This document shows, piece after piece, positions 3,729 to 34,867 of a DNA stretch of 64,000 nucleotides (position 1 is the first letter of the stretch; the number at the start of each line of letters is the position of its first letter). The stretch lies in assembly GCF_004104415.1 (NCBI RefSeq), contig NZ_CP034669.1; one strand, given 5' to 3'. The notes under the pieces are model-generated. The model had not been told where the DNA came from, ran no database searches, and saw nothing but the letters and a program-made list of their open reading frames with translations. Origin of the DNA: Corallococcus coralloides (lineage in GTDB: Bacteria; Myxococcota; Myxococcia; Myxococcales; Myxococcaceae). Position numbers and translations under genes: made by a program.

Positions 3729-6557
3729 ATGCGGATCGCTCCCCAGAATGGCGCGCCTCAACTGTTCGCGCGCACGCGCGCACGCTCCAAACCGGACGGG
3801 AGGCGGGACTTGGCGGAGGTCGCGAGGGGTTTGAAGCTGGAAGTGGAGGCGGACGCCGCGGCCATCGCGGCCCGTGCCGCGGAGGAACTCGTGGAGGCGG
3901 GGCTGACGCCCTTCCACGAGCGGCTCCTCGCCGAGGAACTGCTCGCGCGCAGCGGTGACACGCAGCAGCGGCTGGCGAACGCGCTGGCCGAGGCGAAGGT
4001 GGACCTCAACCCCCACCAGGTCGAAGCCGCGATGTTCGCGCTGGACGCCCTGTCGCGCGGCGGCTGCATGCTCGCGGACGAGGTGGGCCTGGGGAAGACC
4101 ATCGAGGCGGGCCTCGTCATCGCCCAGCTCATGGCGGAGGGAAAAAACCGCATCCTCATCCTCGCCCCCGCGGTGCTGCGCGCGCAGTGGAATGCCGAAT
4201 TGCGCGAGAAGTTCGACCTGGACAGCGTCCTCGTCGACGGCCGCGACGTGAAGAAGCACAACAACTGCTTCGATCAGCCCTTCCCCGTCATCTGCTCGCA
4301 CCCGTTCGCGGCGAACCGCTCCGCGCTCGTGTCGGAGATTCCGTGGGACCTGATCATCATCGACGAGGCCCACCGGCTCCGGAACGCGCACCGTCCCAAC
4401 AACAAGACGGGCCAGGCGCTGCGCGCGTCGCTGGCGGGCCGCCCCAAGCTGCTGCTCACCGCCACCCCGCTCCAGAATGACTTGATGGAGCTGTTCGGCC
4501 TGATGTCGCTGCTGGACGAGCAGATCCTGGGCCCCGAGCACGCCTTCCGCAGCCGCTACCGCGCGGACGAGGGCGGCGGCATGACGGAGGCCGCCGCGTG
4601 CGAGCTCAAGGAGCGGCTGGCCCCGGTGGTGCAACGCACGCTGCGCCGGCAGGTGCGCGAGTACGTCCGCTACACCAACCGCCGCAGCATCGTGGAGGAC
4701 TTCCTCCCCTCCCCCGAGGAGCACGACCTCTACGAGAAGGTCAGTGAGTACCTGCAGCGCTCGGAGGCCGCGGCCATCGAGCCGGGCAAGAAGACGCTCC
4801 TGACGCTGTGCTACCGCAAGCTGCTGGCCTCCTCCACGTTCGCCATCGCGCCCACGCTGCGGCGGCTGTCGGAGAACCTGGAGAAGCGCCTGTCGGCCGC
4901 GCGGCTGGGACAGCAGGCCCTGTCGCTCTTCGAGCCGGAAGAGGCCAGGCAGTTCGTGGAGGAAGGCGAGGAGTGGTCCGACGACCCCGCCAAGGCGCCC
5001 CAGGTCCGCACGCTGGAGCAGGAAGTGTGGGAGCTGCGTCAGTACGCGGACCTCGCGGACTCCATCCGCATCAACGCCAAGGGTGAGGCGCTCAAGCGCG
5101 CCCTGGACCGCACCTTCGCGGTGATGCGCACGCACTCCTGGCCGGAGAAGGCGCTCATCTTCACGGAGTCCAAGCGCACGCAGCAGTACCTCTTCAGGCT
5201 GCTGTCGGAGCACGGCTACAAGGACAAGATTTCGCTCCTGTCCGGCGACGCGGGTGGCACGCCCGAGGAGCGCCGGGCGCTGGTGGAGGAGTTCCGCCAC
5301 AAGACACAGATCCTCATCTGCACGGAGGCCGGCGCCGAGGGCCTCAACCTCCAGTTCTGCAACCTGGTGGTGAACTACGACCTGCCGTGGAACCCGCAGC
5401 GCGTGGAGCAGCGCATTGGCCGGTGCCACCGCTACGGCCAGCAGCGCGACGTGCTGGTGGTGAACTTCCTCAACCGGCAGAACGCGGCGGACGCGCGCCT
5501 GTTCGAGCTGCTGGAGAAGAAGCTCAACCTCTTCGACGGCGTGTTCGGCGCGTCCGACGAAATCCTGGGCGCGCTGGAGAGCGGCGTCGACTTCGAGCGC
5601 CGCGTGCTGGACATCTACCAGTCCTGCCGCGACCCGAAGGACATCAACGTCGCCTTCGACAAGCTGCGCGAGGAGCTGGAGGGCAGCATCAACCAGCGCA
5701 TGACGTCGATGCGCTCGGTGGTGCTGGAGCGCTTCGACGGCGACGTGCGCCGCCGGCTGCGCGTGGCGGGAGACGCGGCCAAGGAGGTCGTGGCCAAACG
5801 CCAGCAGGAGGCGAAGGCGCTCACCGGCTCCGTGCTGGGCAGCCGCACCTCCGGACGGCTCCAGGTGGCCAAGGCCGCCTACGCGGTGCGCGACCGCACC
5901 CAGGACACCGTCAGCTACCTGCAGCTGGACGCGGCGGGGCTCCCCTCGCGGCTGGCGCGGCTGGCCGGCAGCGAGGGCTGGTGGTTCGTCTACAAGTTCG
6001 AGACGACGGGCCTCAAGCCGGAGGAGAAGCTGGTCCACCTGGTGCTGGTGAAGGACCGGGACGGCGGCTTCCGCGCCCTGCCGCTGACGGACGGGGTCCA
6101 CTTCACGAAGCTCGACGCCAAGGAAGAGAAGCGCCGGCAGCCCGCGCCGGTGTCGGTCCAGCTCATGCAAGAGCAGTCGCTCATGACCGCCAAGGATGAG
6201 CTGATTCGGGCCGCGGAACGGCGCAACGCGTTGGAGCTGGACAAGGCCAAGGAGCGCGCGGACCGCTACGTCGAGGACTGCCTGATGGAGTCCCGCGAGG
6301 TGGTGGAGTCCGCCCGCCAGGCGTGGTTCGACGCGCGCAAGGAGGTCTCCGGCATCGAGGACATCGCGGAGCGCGCGAAGGCGCGGGCGCACGCGGACCG
6401 GCAGGAGCGCGACTACCGCCGCAAGCTGGCGTCGCTGCGCAACGAGGAGGAGAAGCGCTACGCCTCCAAGGACCGGCAGATGGCGGAGCTGGCGAACAAG
6501 GCGCGCGTGACGGAGAAGCGCACCCTCATCGCCTCCGCGTACTTCTGGCTGTCGTGA
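3729..6557 (+). CDS. SNF2-family DEAH-box helicase with long C-terminal coiled-coil region
   Basis: ATG at 3729 lies in the frame of track ORF 2712..6557, with GGGAGGA 14 nt upstream. Motifs: ADEVGLGKTIEAG (I), IIIDEAHRLRN (II), LLLTATPLQN (III), and a helicase C-terminal domain (ICTEAGAEGLNLQ...QRIGRCHRYGQ). The N-terminal 339 codons of the track ORF are low-complexity overlap with DUF58 and are rejected. Confidence 0.9.
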   Translation: MRIAPQNGAPQLFARTRARSKPDGRRDLAEVARGLKLEVEADAAAIAARAAEELVEAGLTPFHERLLAEELLARSGDTQQRLANALAEAKVDLNPHQVEAAMFALDALSRGGCMLADEVGLGKTIEAGLVIAQLMAEGKNRILILAPAVLRAQWNAELREKFDLDSVLVDGRDVKKHNNCFDQPFPVICSHPFAANRSALVSEIPWDLIIIDEAHRLRNAHRPNNKTGQALRASLAGRPKLLLTATPLQNDLMELFGLMSLLDEQILGPEHAFRSRYRADEGGGMTEAAACELKERLAPVVQRTLRRQVREYVRYTNRRSIVEDFLPSPEEHDLYEKVSEYLQRSEAAAIEPGKKTLLTLCYRKLLASSTFAIAPTLRRLSENLEKRLSAARLGQQALSLFEPEEARQFVEEGEEWSDDPAKAPQVRTLEQEVWELRQYADLADSIRINAKGEALKRALDRTFAVMRTHSWPEKALIFTESKRTQQYLFRLLSEHGYKDKISLLSGDAGGTPEERRALVEEFRHKTQILICTEAGAEGLNLQFCNLVVNYDLPWNPQRVEQRIGRCHRYGQQRDVLVVNFLNRQNAADARLFELLEKKLNLFDGVFGASDEILGALESGVDFERRVLDIYQSCRDPKDINVAFDKLREELEGSINQRMTSMRSVVLERFDGDVRRRLRVAGDAAKEVVAKRQQEAKALTGSVLGSRTSGRLQVAKAAYAVRDRTQDTVSYLQLDAAGLPSRLARLAGSEGWWFVYKFETTGLKPEEKLVHLVLVKDRDGGFRALPLTDGVHFTKLDAKEEKRRQPAPVSVQLMQEQSLMTAKDELIRAAERRNALELDKAKERADRYVEDCLMESREVVESARQAWFDARKEVSGIEDIAERAKARAHADRQERDYRRKLASLRNEEEKRYASKDRQMAELANKARVTEKRTLIASAYFWLS

Positions 6558-28800: not shown

Positions 28801-30402
28801 CTACGCGTTGCGGCGCACCATGGCCACGTCGTAGTGGCGCTCCGTCACGTAGCCGTTCGCGGCCTTGCCGGGGCGGTACATGTTCCCGGTCTTGTCATCC
28901 ACGTAGAAGCGGTTGTTCGGGTTCGTGTCCCGGCCCGTGCTGGCGTTCTTCGTGCCCGGGTCGTGGAACGTGTAGTAGGTGCGGCCCTTCTCGTCGACGC
29001 CGCGGCCCGTGATGGTCACGAAGTGGTCCGTGAGGCCGTCCGCGTTGTAGCTCGCGTCCTTGTGGCTCACGCCCACGACCACCGGCTTGCCGGCCTCCAG
29101 CTGCTTGTCGATGTAGTTGCGGCCCTCGGCGGCCTTCTTCGAGTCCACCTTCAGCGCGCCGGCGCCGTTCTCGCTCGTGCCCACCTGGATGCGGCGGTCG
29201 GGGCCCAGCACGGTCGCGCCCGCGTCGCGCGACATGGCCGTCGCGGCCTTGAAGCACGCCGTGTCGCTCGCCGTATAGCCGTGGCCGTTCTCGAACTGGC
29301 TGTAGTACGGCACCTTCACGTGCACCGCCGGCTTGTCCTTGGACGGGGCCACCTGCTCCGTGTTCGCGGGGGCCGCCTCCGTGGTGGGCTTGGACGTGTT
29401 CGTGCCCTGGCCTTCCGTGCGGCCCGGCTTCGAGTCGCCGCTCACGGACGGGGGGACCACGCCCGTGTTGGTGTTGGCCGGCTTCGTCGTGGCGCCCGAC
29501 TTCTCCTGCTTCAGCATCGCGAGCGCGTCCTTCGCCTCCGACTTGAAGCGGTTGGCCACGCCCTTCTGCACGTCCTTGGAGCTGCCGGAGAAGTGCACCA
29601 GGGTGCCGTTGCCGTTGGTGCGGCCGCGCTCGGCGTAGATGTCCTTGATGAGCTGCTCGTCGCTCACCTTCGAGGGGTCGCGCCCAGCCAGCGCCTTCTT
29701 GAAGATGTCATCCGCCTTGCCCGGGCCGTGCTGCACGGAGGTGGACCAGGCCACGTCCCGCAGCGCCGCGGAGCGCTTGTCCAGGTCGATGCCCGTCGCA
29801 CTCTTGATGTTGGCGGCGCCCTTGTCGTAGTGCGTGGCCTTGATGTAGTCGTGCTGCGCCTTGTCGAAGCCCTTCGGGTCCTTCGCCGCCAGCTGCTTCC
29901 ACGCGGCGGAGAACTGCGCGGAGCCCGGCTTGCTGCCCGACAGCGCCTGGTGGTACTCCGGGTGCGTCTTCTTCAGCGAGTTGACGAACGACTGCGCAGA
30001 CCCGTTCGCGGAGGCGAACTGGTAGGAGCCGTAGGACACGCCGCCCTTGTCGCCCTTGCCCGTGGACACGGTGCCGGGGCCGCGCGCCTCGTACTTGCGG
30101 CTCAGCCCGCCCAGCTCCCCGGTGGTCGCGCTGCTGGAGGACGTGTTCGTCGCGGGCGTCGTCGCCTTCGCGCCGTCGGTGGCCTGCGTGAAGCTGTCAC
30201 CCGAAGTCTTCGTCCCCGCGCTCGACTTCGTGGTGCCCTTCGTGTCGAAGCCGTCCTGCACCTTCAGCGTCTTGCCGGCCTGGATCTTGTTCGGATCCTT
30301 GATGTTGTTCGCCTTGGCCAGCGCGTCGACGGTCGTGTTGTAGCGCTTCGCGAGGCTGGTAAGCGTGTCACCCGACTTGATGCGGATATTGGAGACGGTC
30401 AC
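28801..30402 (-). CDS. LysM-domain effector-like protein with central unknown domain and C-terminal papain-fold (C39-like) cysteine-peptidase domain
   Basis: N-terminal LysM IRIKSGDTLTSLAKRYNTTVDALAKANNIKDPNKIQAGKTLKV directly at the start (no signal peptide), then a Lys/Thr/Ser/Gly-rich linker and a conserved-looking central domain (GVSYGSYQFASANGSAQSFVNSL...). The C-terminal domain opens VPYYSQFENGHGYTASDTACFKA...DHFVTITG...YTFHDPG, a Cys..His..Asp arrangement like C39-like/CHAP-like peptidases. Local GC is lower than the genome. Confidence 0.78.
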   Translation of the reverse strand: MTVSNIRIKSGDTLTSLAKRYNTTVDALAKANNIKDPNKIQAGKTLKVQDGFDTKGTTKSSAGTKTSGDSFTQATDGAKATTPATNTSSSSATTGELGGLSRKYEARGPGTVSTGKGDKGGVSYGSYQFASANGSAQSFVNSLKKTHPEYHQALSGSKPGSAQFSAAWKQLAAKDPKGFDKAQHDYIKATHYDKGAANIKSATGIDLDKRSAALRDVAWSTSVQHGPGKADDIFKKALAGRDPSKVSDEQLIKDIYAERGRTNGNGTLVHFSGSSKDVQKGVANRFKSEAKDALAMLKQEKSGATTKPANTNTGVVPPSVSGDSKPGRTEGQGTNTSKPTTEAAPANTEQVAPSKDKPAVHVKVPYYSQFENGHGYTASDTACFKAATAMSRDAGATVLGPDRRIQVGTSENGAGALKVDSKKAAEGRNYIDKQLEAGKPVVVGVSHKDASYNADGLTDHFVTITGRGVDEKGRTYYTFHDPGTKNASTGRDTNPNNRFYVDDKTGNMYRPGKAANGYVTERHYDVAMVRRNA

Positions 30403-30595: not shown

Positions 30596-31633
30596 ATGTC
30601 CAGGATCCAACCGGATTTCAAAAGTGTGGCATTGCTGTTTGCCATTTGCGTCACGAGCGCGGTCCCGGAGGCCTCGGCCCAGGGGCCCGAGGGACTCACG
30701 GGGGTCTATTCGAACAAGGGCGGGACGCTGGCCATCGTCGAGGGCAACAACGAGACGCTGGTGCACTTCTCCGGTTCGTTCCCGCAGGGGGAGAGCGCGG
30801 GCACCTGCGATTGCGCCCTGGTCGTCCAGAGGAAGAGCGCGACGAACTGGTCACTTCAGCAGGCGGGCGAGCAGGACGCATGGACGCTGCGCGTCAATCC
30901 CAAGCAGTTCGTGCTGGAGTCCGGTCCGTCACCGTCCTGTTGCGGAGCCGGCTACCCGGGCAAGGACACCTTCGCCCGGAGCACGGCCAGGCCGCTGGGC
31001 ATCTGCAAGGTGAAGGTGTCCAAGGCGGGCTTCCACGCGTCGGACGCGGCCAACACGCCGCGCAAGGCGTTCGTGGTGTCCGGCGACGCGGTGGAGGCCT
31101 ACGTCGACCCGGTGGAGCCGGACTTCCTCGCCGCGCGCTTCCAGGGGCCCCAGAAGGCCACGGCGGGGCTGCTCAAGCGCGAGGACCTGGACTGTGCGGC
31201 GGAGTCCGCGCCCAAGGCCGCCGTGAAGGCCCCCGTGGCCGCGGACAAGCTCCAGCCCTTCGCGGGGACGTGGGTGGAGCTGACGCGGCAGGGCAAGGGC
31301 TTCGTGGTGCTCAAGCCCTGCTCGGCCGCGACGCGCAGCTTCACGGTCAAGCCCGCCACGGGCGAGGTGGAGGTGCAGCTGGGCCAGGAGGCCACGACGC
31401 TGAAGGTGACGTCCGTGGAGCCCGGCAAGGGCGCCGGGGCCTGGGTGCTGGGGCTCACGGCCGCGGACGGCAAGCCGGAGGCGCTCCAATGGAAGACGGC
31501 CGACGCCGCGAAGGGCACCGTGTCCGTGAACAGCCCGGACCTCTTCTCCCAGAGCCACGACTACGTGCGCCAGGAGAAGAAGTCCGCCTTCCCGTCCAAG
31601 CAGGAGACGGGGTGCGACGAGTACGAGCGCTAA
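30596..31633 (+). CDS. secreted hypothetical protein (signal peptide), divergent partner of the LysM effector gene
   Basis: Signal peptide MSRIQPDFKSVALLFAICVTSAVPEASAQ, several Cys pairs (CDC, CCG) and no recognisable domain. Confidence 0.65.
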   Translation: MSRIQPDFKSVALLFAICVTSAVPEASAQGPEGLTGVYSNKGGTLAIVEGNNETLVHFSGSFPQGESAGTCDCALVVQRKSATNWSLQQAGEQDAWTLRVNPKQFVLESGPSPSCCGAGYPGKDTFARSTARPLGICKVKVSKAGFHASDAANTPRKAFVVSGDAVEAYVDPVEPDFLAARFQGPQKATAGLLKREDLDCAAESAPKAAVKAPVAADKLQPFAGTWVELTRQGKGFVVLKPCSAATRSFTVKPATGEVEVQLGQEATTLKVTSVEPGKGAGAWVLGLTAADGKPEALQWKTADAAKGTVSVNSPDLFSQSHDYVRQEKKSAFPSKQETGCDEYER

Positions 31634-32640
31634 CGCGCCCGTGAGCGACGCCGGGCCCGCAGGCCCCCGCCGAGCAGCAGCGCGACGAGCGCACCGGACA
31701 GGGGGCCCCCCCGCGTCGACGGTCCCCGCACCGACAATCCACGCTCTGCAGTTCGATGAGGGATTGGCGCTCCGCCTCTGACTTGCGGTGGCTGGCGATG
31801 TCCGCGAGCTGCTTCTCCTCCTCGCTGCGGATGCGCTTGAGCTCCACGGCGGCCTGGGCCTCCTGGCGTGAGGCGTCCAGCTGGATCTGGATGTTGGTGT
31901 CGATGGCCTCGCGCAGCTTCAGGGCTGTCTTCTCATCGACGGGGGCGATGTCCTTGATGTCGATGTCGATGATGCGCAGCTGGTTCTCGGAGAAGAGGCG
32001 GTCCTTGCGCGCGCGGCCCGCGTCATCCATGCCGAAGATGGCGCGGCGGATGAGCACGCTGGCGTTCTTGTGGAAGGTCTCGAACTCGTTCTCCGCGGCG
32101 ACCTGGCGGATGCGCGACGCGAGGTTCTCACACACGTACCCGATGAAGTCGTTCACCCGGAAGATGGACTTGTCCTTCTCCGGGTCGCCCTGCACGTCGA
32201 ACTGCCACTTGTAGGAAAGCTTGATGCGCAGCCGCGCGTGGTCGCGCGTGGCCACCTCGAACAGATCCGTGGCGAAGTCCGGCCCCAGCCGCAGCATCAG
32301 CACCTTGAGCTGGCGCGGACGCTTGGGCGTGCTGCCGGACAGGTCCAGCACGGTGACGTCCTCGTACGGGCGCAGCATCACCTTCGCGGGGCCGAACTCC
32401 ACGCGCGCGTGGTTGGTCTCGAAGTCGTTGATGAGGACCGCCGTGTTGTCCTCGATGCGCAGCACGATGGCGCGCGTGCGGTCCCCCTTCTCCGTCGCGA
32501 TCATGGGGCGAGGAGCGCGTGAGCACGCGCGGGCCGACTTCCATCAGCACGACGCCGCGGTTGGCGTCTTCGATGTATGCGTACTCGCGGTTCTTCAGGG
32601 AGATGCGCTGGATGGCTTCGGTGCTGGGGGCGGACGGCAT
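31630..32640 (-). pseudogene. major-vault-protein (MVP) repeat / SPFH-shoulder-like protein, read in three frames (two frameshifts)
   Basis: From ATG at 32640: RISLKNREYAYIEDANRGVVLMEVGPRVLT; then in another frame RAIVLRIEDNTAVLINDFETNHARVEFGPAKVMLRPYEDV. Both match the Vault repeat consensus (vRLxPgEyvhVlDxnTgxxRvevGPqtyvL). This is followed by a band-7/shoulder-like domain (IIDIDIKDIAPVDEKTALKLREAIDTNIQIQLDASRQEAQAA), a coiled coil, and in a third frame a hydrophobic tail LSGALVALLLGGGLRARRRSRAR*. Frame changes occur near 32505 (run of Gs) and near 31700-31745 (gggggccccccc run). Confidence 0.55.
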
Positions 32641-32883
32641 GGCACACCTGCTCGCGGGGGTGGGGTTCGGCCGTGAGACATTGCGAGCCCCATGCCGTCA
32701 CCGCTCCGCCCTGGAACGGCCCCGCACCGCGCCGGACTGGCATGGGTGCTCGCTCCAGTCCGGTGCGTGGTGTTCCAGACTGGAGCGCCTGCCGAGCTTG
32801 GAACGCTGCTCGGCGTCTGTTCGAATGCATCCTGTGCGCGGGCGGGGATGCTCCGGCCCGATGGCACCCACCCCGGAGGAAAC

Positions 32884-33114
32884 ATGAAGGCATCGCGACT
32901 GAAGCAGATGGTTCCTGGATTCGCGCTGATCATCGGCATCATGGCGGGCACGGCGCTGGCCATGGTTCCCGGCTCGACGGCGGAGACGAGCGAGAATCAG
33001 ACGTCTGCTGTCCAGATGATCTGTTCCCGCACCTGTAAGCCGTGCTCGACCCAGTTTGAGTGTGGAACGAACGGGGGTTCATGCGGGGTCTGGCGCTGCA
33101 CCAATCCTCAGTAG
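32884..33114 (+). CDS. small secreted cysteine-rich peptide precursor (76 aa, 6 Cys in mature part)
   Basis: MKASRLKQMVPGFALIIGIMAGTALAMVPGSTA|ETSENQTSAVQMICSRTCKPCSTQFECGTNGGSCGVWRCTNPQ*. Its 3' end is the first bases of the tandem repeat unit. Confidence 0.6.
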   Translation: MKASRLKQMVPGFALIIGIMAGTALAMVPGSTAETSENQTSAVQMICSRTCKPCSTQFECGTNGGSCGVWRCTNPQ

Positions 33115-33140
33115 ACACCTGAAAGAAGCGCCCCCATCCG

Positions 33141-33164
33141 CCTCCGAGTCCCAGGGCTCGGAGG
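33141..33164 (+). promoter_or_regulatory. 24-nt palindrome upstream of toxin gene copy 1
   Basis: CCTCCGAGtcccagggCTCGGAGG followed by ctttcc, 22 nt before the ATG. It is conserved in all three repeat units and could act as a hairpin, attenuator or operator. Confidence 0.35.
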
Positions 33165-33185
33165 CTTTCCAATTGTTGCGAAGAG

Positions 33186-34115
33186 ATGGCCATGCGTCTC
33201 CGGACATGCGGTGCCCTTTTGCTGCTGCTCGTTTTCTCGGCCTGCGCCACGACGGAGCCACGCGCCCGTGCGCCAGCGGCCCGCGGCACGAGGGCTGCCA
33301 ACCTCCAACGAGCGGCGGCGCTGCCCTGGAAGGATGATGGGCGGTGCGTTGTCCGCGAGGCGTCCCAGCCTTGGCCCGTGCTGGTGGAGCGGTGCTATCC
33401 GGCGCTCGACCATGACCGCGTCGAGTTCCGTGACACCACGGGAAGATGCACGGTCGCCTCCGCTGCCGCCGCGACCTTGGGAATCGGGTTCTGCGTGCTG
33501 GCGGCCCCTGAAATCGCCGTGGGAGCCGTCATCGTCCTGGGCGTGGTGGTGGTCGGCGTCGCCATCAAGGATGCACTGGATGCGTACGAGTTCCGCCACC
33601 ACTACCCCGAGGAAGCGGGAACCTCACGGGGGACGAAGGTCGCGTCCCGAGATGCCGCAGCGAAGCCGAAGCCCAAGCTGCAACCGGAGCCAGCGGGCCA
33701 GGGCAGACAGCCCCCGGTGCCGCCAGTGCCCGTGGACAGGACGGGCCGCGCCAGCTGCGAGCCTGTTCCCGTGCGTCACGCAGGCGAGGATCGTGCGCAT
33801 AACGAGTGTGCCGATAAGTTTCCGCCCAACCGTTATCCCGGGATGGATGTGCTTGTTGGCGGTGTACGCTTCGATGCGCTGCAAGTCGGTGTCCGCAAAC
33901 TGTGGGAGATCAAGACCCACCAATTCGATTCGTACAATGATTTCATCCGCGACAGGGAAATTGAAAAGGAACTGATTCAACTAGAGAGTGAGCGAAGAGT
34001 CGCTGAGGCTTGTGGATATGACTTCATCGTTGGGGTGAGTACCGAGGCGCACAAAGCGGCGCTGGAGGAACTGGAACCCACTCTCATTATCGTCGTCACA
34101 GGGTGTCAACGATGA
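33186..34115 (+). CDS. lipoprotein polymorphic toxin with C-terminal PD-(D/E)xK-like nuclease domain (copy 1)
   Basis: Lipobox MAMRLRTCGALLLLLVFSAC, a Cys-containing N-domain, a ~35 aa hydrophobic TM hairpin-like segment, a Pro-rich linker, and a C-terminal GMDVLVGGVRFDALQVGVRKLWEIKTHQFDSY (D...E-x-K arrangement of restriction-endonuclease-fold toxins). The last ~60 aa differ between copies. Confidence 0.8.
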   Translation: MAMRLRTCGALLLLLVFSACATTEPRARAPAARGTRAANLQRAAALPWKDDGRCVVREASQPWPVLVERCYPALDHDRVEFRDTTGRCTVASAAAATLGIGFCVLAAPEIAVGAVIVLGVVVVGVAIKDALDAYEFRHHYPEEAGTSRGTKVASRDAAAKPKPKLQPEPAGQGRQPPVPPVPVDRTGRASCEPVPVRHAGEDRAHNECADKFPPNRYPGMDVLVGGVRFDALQVGVRKLWEIKTHQFDSYNDFIRDREIEKELIQLESERRVAEACGYDFIVGVSTEAHKAALEELEPTLIIVVTGCQR

Positions 34116-34867
34116 CTACGCGAAAAAGACTCACTCTCATTGTCTACGGGCCTGCGCTCTTGGTTGACGACAGCCGCCCCGTCGCCATCGTCAATGGGCT
34201 GGAGAAGGCGTTGCCCAGCTTACGACTGGAGTGGGAAGTCGGAGAAGGCGGGCGCCTTATTGCATTGCCACGGCGCGACGAATGGCTCTTGGCGAGCATT
34301 GAGGATGGAGGATTCCCTCTCATATGCAACGGGGACGAGAGTTATCCCGTGACGGTCAATGGAAGGGACCGGTCCGAGCTCTTCAGTCCCGGCGGCCAGG
34401 CCCAATTTGAAGTTCATGCCAAGCTGCCACTCGACGCACCTGTAATCGCTGCAGCGGCGGCTCTGCTTGAGGCCGTGGCGGAAGGGGCTCGTGCGTTCTG
34501 GGGGCACGCGTCGCCGTATGGTTACGGCTCGGAAGTAGCGAAGCAGTTCCGCCGCTCACCGGATGGGCCCGATCTCTCACCCCGTGGGCTTCCCATGCTC
34601 AACCTTCCCCAGAAAAGCCCCAGGCCTGAGACGCCCTATTTCCTGGGGTGGCTGAACTACTGGTCCGCTGCCGCCGCGGAGGTCATCGGGTTCCCGGATC
34701 CTGCTCGCGATGCCGAGCTGCTCTCGCGGGCGCGTCGCACTCCGTCGGGCGGGTGGATCGTGCAGCTCACGGAGACACCGCTCGATTACGACAACCCCCT
34801 GCACGTGGAAGCGCTCAAGCGGACCTATGAGCGCTTCCCGGAGATCGGTGGACGCGAGGGGCCCTGA
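34112..34867 (+). CDS. cognate immunity-like protein (copy 1)
   Basis: ATGA overlap with the toxin stop. The N-terminal ~110 aa are variable between copies and the C-terminal ~130 aa are nearly identical (…WLNYWSAAAAEVIGFPDPARDAELLSRARRTPSGGWIVQLTETPLDYDNPLHVEALKRTYERFPEIGG). Confidence 0.75.
   Translation: MTTRKRLTLIVYGPALLVDDSRPVAIVNGLEKALPSLRLEWEVGEGGRLIALPRRDEWLLASIEDGGFPLICNGDESYPVTVNGRDRSELFSPGGQAQFEVHAKLPLDAPVIAAAAALLEAVAEGARAFWGHASPYGYGSEVAKQFRRSPDGPDLSPRGLPMLNLPQKSPRPETPYFLGWLNYWSAAAAEVIGFPDPARDAELLSRARRTPSGGWIVQLTETPLDYDNPLHVEALKRTYERFPEIGGREGP

Follow-up and report, generated by a model that had tools for sequence, protein, structure and literature searches.

Probable deletion scars of a major vault protein gene in Corallococcus coralloides B035

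In Corallococcus coralloides B035, the minus strand from 32640 to 31630 of the 64,000-nucleotide stretch of contig NZ_CP034669.1 analysed here (the window) very probably carries a pseudogene, the scar of at least three deletions at a locus that in other Corallococcus holds genes for a 755-aa major vault protein (MVP), a lipoprotein and a metalloprotease. A 905-nt out-of-frame deletion joined MVP codon 41 to codon 343, and a second deletion of ~3 kb brought MVP codon 600 up against the final ~110 nt of the metalloprotease gene. A third, of ~65 nt, took the Gly-Cys part of the metalloprotease MYXO-CTERM signal. With these three deletions, the three frames in which the region is read are two fragments of the MVP gene and one fragment of another gene.

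Translation of the window confirmed three successive reading frames from 32640 to 31630 on the minus strand, as a preliminary description of this DNA had quoted them. Frame A starts at the ATG at 32640 and gives MPSAPSTEAIQRISLKNREYAYIEDANRGVVLMEVGPRVLT, followed by Arg/Gly/Pro-rich nonsense up to a stop at 32128. Frame B is a clean stretch from ~32519 to 31745 (…RAPRPMIATEKGDRTRAIVLRIEDNTAVLINDF…SLIELQ), and frame C closes with GGPLSGALVALLLGGGLRARRRSRAR ahead of its stop codon at 31630-31632. MVP codons 1-41 (32518-32640, minus strand) comprise the native start and encode the N-terminal half of vault repeat one. They open an ORF of 170 aa (32128-32640, minus strand) that turns out of frame after these residues, and translation from the native ATG would be expected to yield 41 native and 129 nonsense residues.

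In frame B, the last vault repeat, Vault_3 (PF17795, E 8.2e-18), lies at 32286-32468 of the minus strand and covers residues 13-73 in the ORF opening at 32504. It is followed at 31935-32285 by MVP_shoulder (PF11978, E 5.4e-46), which spans residues 74-190 and the full profile from 1 to 118, with a Pfam score of 155.9 bits against a cut-off of 25. Next comes the start of the cap-helix coiled coil, ~64 residues long (31745-31934, minus strand); it aligns with the cap-helix region of rat MVP and ends at MVP codon 600 (…SLIELQ). The profile search had been set beforehand as the test of the vault assignment, and since both Vault_3 and MVP_shoulder scored far above their cut-offs, the objection that the region is related to SPFH proteins only fails. 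The preliminary description had proposed a band-7/shoulder-like domain and then a coiled coil: the shoulder and the coiled coil were both recovered, while Pfam found MVP_shoulder and Vault_3 as the only families in frame B and gave no match to Band_7 (PF01145) at E <= 1.

It had also named two vault-repeat segments. The second is Vault_3, the one scoring repeat among the vault-repeat families (PF01505, PF17794, PF17795 and PF17796) in the window. The first, 41 aa long, has no Pfam match when taken alone, and its identity was therefore settled through the intact orthologue of C. coralloides KYC2213 (L015:5134-7398; loci of the comparison are numbered with the letter L). In tblastn it is 100% identical to residues 1-41 of this 755-aa protein, of which residues 8-41 can be aligned with repeat one of rat MVP. 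A search of the window with the whole orthologue recovered residues 1-41 (100%, 32640-32518) and residues 342-601 (96.9%, 32522-31743) and nothing else. Vault_2, Vault and Vault_4 are all missing from the window and the repeat array is incomplete, codons 42-342 being deleted; the complete cap helix and the C-terminal region are likewise absent with codons 601-755. An artificially rejoined protein of 334 aa gave nothing more in Pfam than the middle frame did. Judged by these domain and orthologue matches, the MVP identity of the B035 sequence is real.

The state of the locus in relatives provides the reference for what has been lost. A scan of species-representative genomes yielded 25 related loci, and tblastn with the 755-aa protein found the MVP orthologue in one continuous frame in 21 of them. 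Among these, the syntenic gene of C. coralloides KYC2213 is uninterrupted over all 755 codons. Pfam divides the intact protein into two Vault_2, two Vault, one Vault_4, one Vault_3 and one MVP_shoulder domain, and these are accompanied by a long C-terminal helix. With rat MVP, this intact myxobacterial protein gives an alignment (E 3e-139) that starts in the first repeat and reaches the C-terminus. Conservation among the orthologues ranges from 85 to 99% identity, and the parts kept in B035 share 97-100% protein identity with intact Corallococcus orthologues. The preliminary description took bacterial MVP-like proteins to be rare, an opinion that is difficult to maintain: a protein search with the full-length orthologue returned 538 clusters at E <= 1e-20, many of them cyanobacterial. 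Dozens of relatives of 752-766 aa, from Corallococcus, Archangium, Vitiosangium, Melittangium and Hyalangium, were found among the matches listed, which are the best 120 of the 538. Within these best 120 matches the B035 contig (9,587,888 bp) is not represented by a second MVP protein, and B035 is probably a natural MVP-null strain. The native protein being 755 aa long, and the window lacking codons 42-342 and 601-755, the suggestion of a short MVP of ~335 aa has to be abandoned.

The first junction lies at 32517-32521 (~32519) of the minus strand, where 905 nt are absent and MVP codons 42-342 are gone; in the intact orthologue these codons account for five vault-repeat domain matches. The blastn alignment to the KYC2213 locus breaks at 5256 and restarts at 6160, and identical breakpoints were obtained against L011, L019, L021, L024, L008 and L016. 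The bases at the junction (left parent …GTGCTCA-CGC-TGG; right parent …GCC-CGC-GCGCCG; window …GTGCTCA-CGC-GCTCCT) share a microhomology of 3 nt (CGC). A 9-nt direct repeat (GCCCGCGCG) flanking the junction was considered as the crossover point and rejected, for the window keeps 8 nt past the left copy. As 905 equals 3 x 301 + 2, the deletion alone shifts the frame at this position. The 905-nt deletion thus puts the two MVP fragments into different frames, and no single uninterrupted frame connects them. The homopolymer run closest to the junction, five bases at 32483-32487, is 32 nt off in the downstream direction.

At the second junction (31745/31744, extending to 31730, minus strand), MVP nucleotide ~1801 is joined to the 3' part of another gene and ~3 kb are deleted, namely 3004, 3032 and 2872 nt relative to L011, L019 and L024. 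Downstream of MVP, the loci L011, L019, L021 and L024 carry a lipoprotein gene and then a metalloprotease gene, both on the MVP strand. The former encodes a 345-aa HmuY-like lipoprotein (PF14064, E 2e-14) and the latter a 522-aa MXAN_6640-family HExxH metalloprotease (NF045524, E 2.4e-72). What B035 has lost at this junction is the end of the MVP gene (codons 601-755), the lipoprotein gene in its entirety and the greater part of the metalloprotease gene. Its right-hand breakpoint is placed to within ~15 nt, as the ~15 nt at 31730-31744 match nothing. Immediately beyond them, 31703-31729 of the minus strand is a remnant of the D-A-G-T repeat of the metalloprotease gene (92.6% identical to L011 9939-9965 and 95% to L019 9970-9989). 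This repeat region beside the junction varies among strains.

The third junction coincides with a G7C5 run (31701-31712, minus strand), which marks a ~65-nt deletion inside the metalloprotease remnant. The stretch 31630-31711 of the minus strand is the orphaned 3' end of the metalloprotease gene; it encodes two parts of a MYXO-CTERM-type signal, the transmembrane helix and the Arg cluster, and ends with the stop at 31630-31632. Read as 31711-31630, this segment gave a 97-98% DNA match by blastn-short to a site lying 2.6 kb downstream from MVP in L011, L019, L021 and L024 (97% identity to L011 10022-10103), and in the same loci 31729-31703 matches a site ~60 nt further upstream. Alignment to L011, L019 and L021 indicated that what was removed between the two is the Gly-Cys part (…DDGGCQAT) of the sorting signal. 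The metalloprotease of L011 terminates in …DDGGCQATGGPLSGALVALLLGGGLRARRRSRAR*, a MYXO-CTERM-type sorting signal that falls marginally short in TIGR03382 (15.0 bits against a cut-off of 15.85). The last 26 residues of frame C, GGPLSGALVALLLGGGLRARRRSRAR, correspond in 26 of 26 positions to the C-terminus of this protein (L011:8535-10103, Corallococcus sp. RDP092CA), and this identifies the hydrophobic tail with its poly-Arg end as an orphaned piece of another gene. The parts of a MYXO-CTERM protein do not stand together here, the Gly-Cys being deleted and the tail belonging to another gene and another frame. We also considered the 103-nt tail as a degraded MVP 3' end and discarded this idea, because its global alignment to KYC2213 gave scattered matches as opposed to 97-98% with the metalloprotease gene. 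The tail itself exists as first reported, and its stop (31630-31632) overlaps the stop of the convergent gene at 30596-31633. Its interpretation as a membrane anchor of MVP has to be given up, the tail being the sorting signal of a deleted downstream gene of the MXAN_6640 family.

The convergent neighbour (30596-31633, plus strand) encodes a predicted secreted protein of 345 aa for which no family match was found; it is syntenic in all Corallococcus loci and served as the anchor of the locus comparison. On the opposite strand, the gene annotated as EJ065_4675 (31455-32504, minus strand, 349 aa) starts at an internal ATG, continues through MVP codons 348-600 and ends with ~95 out-of-frame residues, Arg/Pro-rich and antisense into this neighbour. 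The ORF at 31455-32504 is 100% identical to EJ065_4675, which UniRef names 'Band 7 domain-containing protein', and the protein database contains this allele just once, as a cluster of one member from one contig. No Shine-Dalgarno-like sequence precedes the ATG at 32504 (CGCTCCTCGCCCCATG), which itself sits within the out-of-frame ORF opened by the native start. A promoter and terminator scan of 31400-33200 detected no promoter-like site and nothing else of note. EJ065_4675 is a chimeric pseudo-ORF and is unsuitable as an example of a short bacterial MVP.

Several other explanations of the three frames deserve consideration. The preliminary description had placed the frame changes at G/C homopolymer runs and had supposed that the gene might be intact, with single-base errors left by the assembly. 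The B035 genome was indeed assembled from PacBio RS II reads only, and both the G7C5 run (31701-31712) and the 5-base run (32483-32487) are present, yet this explanation is highly improbable. The frame changes occur at the 905-nt and ~3-kb deletions, the G7C5 run belongs to the ~65-nt deletion in the metalloprotease remnant, and the first junction sits 32 nt from the nearest run. No single-base correction can restore the large losses: repairing the frame would still leave residues 42-342 and 601-755 missing, and the third frame comes from another gene. The assembly rests on 350x coverage with a mean read length of 11.7 kb, HGAP4 and consensus polishing (PMC6486236). Reads of 11.7 kb span the locus, which makes it very unlikely that 0.9 and 3 kb of non-repetitive sequence were lost spuriously; judging from coverage and read length, the same holds for assembly error as the cause of the deletions. 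A genuine short, membrane-anchored MVP produced through two programmed ribosomal frameshifts would account for the three consecutive frames and for the G/C run near the second shift, the only features that speak for it, and is scarcely credible. The relatives are single-frame and possess neither a frame change at the equivalent sites nor such a tail, the junctions are deletion breakpoints, in seven related loci the tail forms the C-terminus encoded by a separate gene, and the sorting signal has no Gly-Cys motif.

The remnant could alternatively still be useful, with the ATG at 32504 leading into the last vault repeat, the SPFH-like shoulder and a short coiled coil to form a small oligomerising scaffold. 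Its 349 open codons with complete Vault_3 and shoulder domains, and the in-frame 'mini' alleles known from two other loci (L026 and L027, described below), are compatible with such a protein. Over the 246 retained codons (DRTRAIV…SLIELQ), dN/dS against intact orthologues is 0.02-0.06, compared with 0-0.045 among the intact orthologues themselves, and the retained codons carry two private nonsynonymous changes in the window lineage, as they likewise do in intact KYC2213. This low dN/dS implies that most of the divergence arose under constraint and fits recent deletions; from these retained codons, the deletions would appear to be recent. It fits a functional fragment equally and cannot separate it from a recent pseudogene, a recent deletion predicting the same low values. 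On the other hand, the ATG at 32504 lacks a Shine-Dalgarno-like sequence and lies inside the out-of-frame ORF from the native start, the final ~95 residues are out-of-frame, Arg/Pro-rich and antisense to the neighbour, the allele is unique in the protein database, and the mini alleles of L026 and L027 retain other parts of the protein. All in all, a working remnant is very doubtful, and the B035 copy is best classed as a pseudogene of the known MVP family.

Vault assembly in the rat is driven by the cap helix; the barrel and the waist contact are formed from the N-terminal repeats. The product of the B035 copy could not be expected to form a vault-like shell, since it lacks five repeat-domain matches and the C-terminal ring region and has less than half of the cap helix left. 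Compared with eukaryotic MVP (rat; PDB 4V60, 4HL8 and 2QZV), whose chain in the rat counts 861 aa and exceeds the myxobacterial protein by ~100 residues, B035 keeps the first half of repeat one, along with the final repeat, the shoulder and the opening part of the cap helix. It cannot encode the repeats and cap regions that in the rat build the barrel and the cap. With the MVP homologues of other myxobacteria, the B035 copy shares its chromosomal place, Vault_3 and MVP_shoulder. These homologues are intact, of 752-766 aa and in one frame, whereas the B035 copy is in two frames and fused to a foreign 3' end. Of the MYXO-CTERM and NF045524 metalloproteases B035 keeps the last ~110 nt only, a fragment that has neither a catalytic domain nor its own start codon. 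The shoulder domain of MVP has an SPFH-like fold; unlike SPFH/band-7 proteins such as stomatin, flotillin and HflK/C, the B035 sequence matches MVP_shoulder specifically and has no N-terminal membrane anchor.

Putative bacterial homologues of MVP, including one from C. coralloides (UniProtKB H8MNI3), were described by Daly et al. in 2013 (PMC3762200). Those of Myxococcales, Cytophagales and Oscillatoriales were discussed by Sokolskyi in 2019 (bioRxiv 10.1101/872010), where a link of bacterial MVPs to gliding was proposed, and a 2023 preprint on phage MVPs again made use of C. coralloides (bioRxiv 10.1101/2023.11.10.566534). The family has thus been known in myxobacteria since 2013, and the B035 allele is an ordinary decayed copy. 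Our search of the literature, which extended to cryo-EM of bacterial vaults, found no experimental work on myxobacterial vaults. To our knowledge, the assembly of a vault particle or vault-like shell has been demonstrated for no myxobacterial MVP.

B035 is cultivated, fully sequenced and appears to be without functional MVP, which argues that the protein is dispensable for growth and development. The strain also offers a natural control for tests of the proposed link between MVP and gliding. That the recurrent loss of MVP should reflect selection for the loss or remodelling of a bacterial vault-like shell, instead of neutral decay, is unlikely; if it were so, B035 would be a ready natural null strain for asking what bacterial MVP does.

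The MVP locus readily undergoes insertions and deletions. Seven loci have the lipoprotein-metalloprotease cassette and five do not, and in C. interemptor (L008) it is reduced to its last 68 nt. C. llansteffanensis (L026) has an in-frame MVP deletion of ~1.35 kb across a 17-nt direct repeat, and a soil metagenome contig (L027) has another in-frame MVP deletion of ~1.0 kb. In C. sicarius (L022) the 5' 1.2 kb are replaced, the first 411 codons are gone and there is a frameshift in addition. The MVP deletion alleles of B035, L026, L027 and L022 are independent events.

The major vault protein (MVP) gene carries deletions in other genomes as well. In Corallococcus llansteffanensis (L026:4001-4912), about 1.35 kb has been lost in frame across a 17-nt direct repeat (CTGGAGAAGGCCCGCGT), and a soil metagenome allele (L027:174-1415) lacks about 1.0 kb, also without a change of frame. 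In C. sicarius (L022:6001-7036), 1.2 kb at the 5' end is replaced and a 1-nt frameshift is present; the allele of an Archangium metagenome-assembled genome (MAG; L025) displays several gaps, which may reflect misassembly of the MAG. The deletions differ among these four alleles, pointing to independent events. Orthologues also occur in two MAGs without a myxobacterial label, one assigned to Planctomycetota (L020, 68% identity to the Corallococcus protein) and the other labelled as a beta proteobacterium (L023, 84%); mis-binning or horizontal transfer could explain both.

In the window, the annotated ORF EJ065_4675 (31455-32504, minus strand), named 'Band 7 domain-containing protein' in UniRef, is a chimeric pseudo-ORF, the final ~95 residues of which are out-of-frame sequence, antisense to the neighbouring gene and extending into it.

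Immediately 3' of the MVP gene, Corallococcus sp. RDP092CA carries a two-gene cassette (L011:7498-10103) that encodes an HmuY-like lipoprotein and an HExxH metalloprotease of the MXAN_6640 family ending in a MYXO-CTERM tail. The cassette was found in seven related loci (L011, L012, L013, L014, L019, L021 and L024) and is missing from five. Its deletion left remnants of different lengths in C. interemptor (L008:7430-7497) and in the window.

Divergently from the MVP start, a 76-aa ORF (32884-33114, plus strand) preceded by a GGAGG ribosome-binding site combines a signal-peptide-like N-terminus with a Cys-rich C-terminus (…CSRTCKPCSTQFECGTNGGSCGVWRCTNPQ); it had no match in a Pfam search and is also kept in C. 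coralloides KYC2213 (L015). An overlapping plus-strand pair follows, a DUF6310 gene (33186-34115, E 8e-57) and a DUF5953 gene (34103-34867, E 2e-113), and a homologue of the latter adjoins the MVP gene in L015 too. On the minus strand, the gene at 28801-30402, which is syntenic in L015 and L026, probably encodes a peptidoglycan hydrolase: its 533-aa product contains a LysM domain and, at the C-terminus, a T6SS_VgrG3-like domain (E 1e-52).
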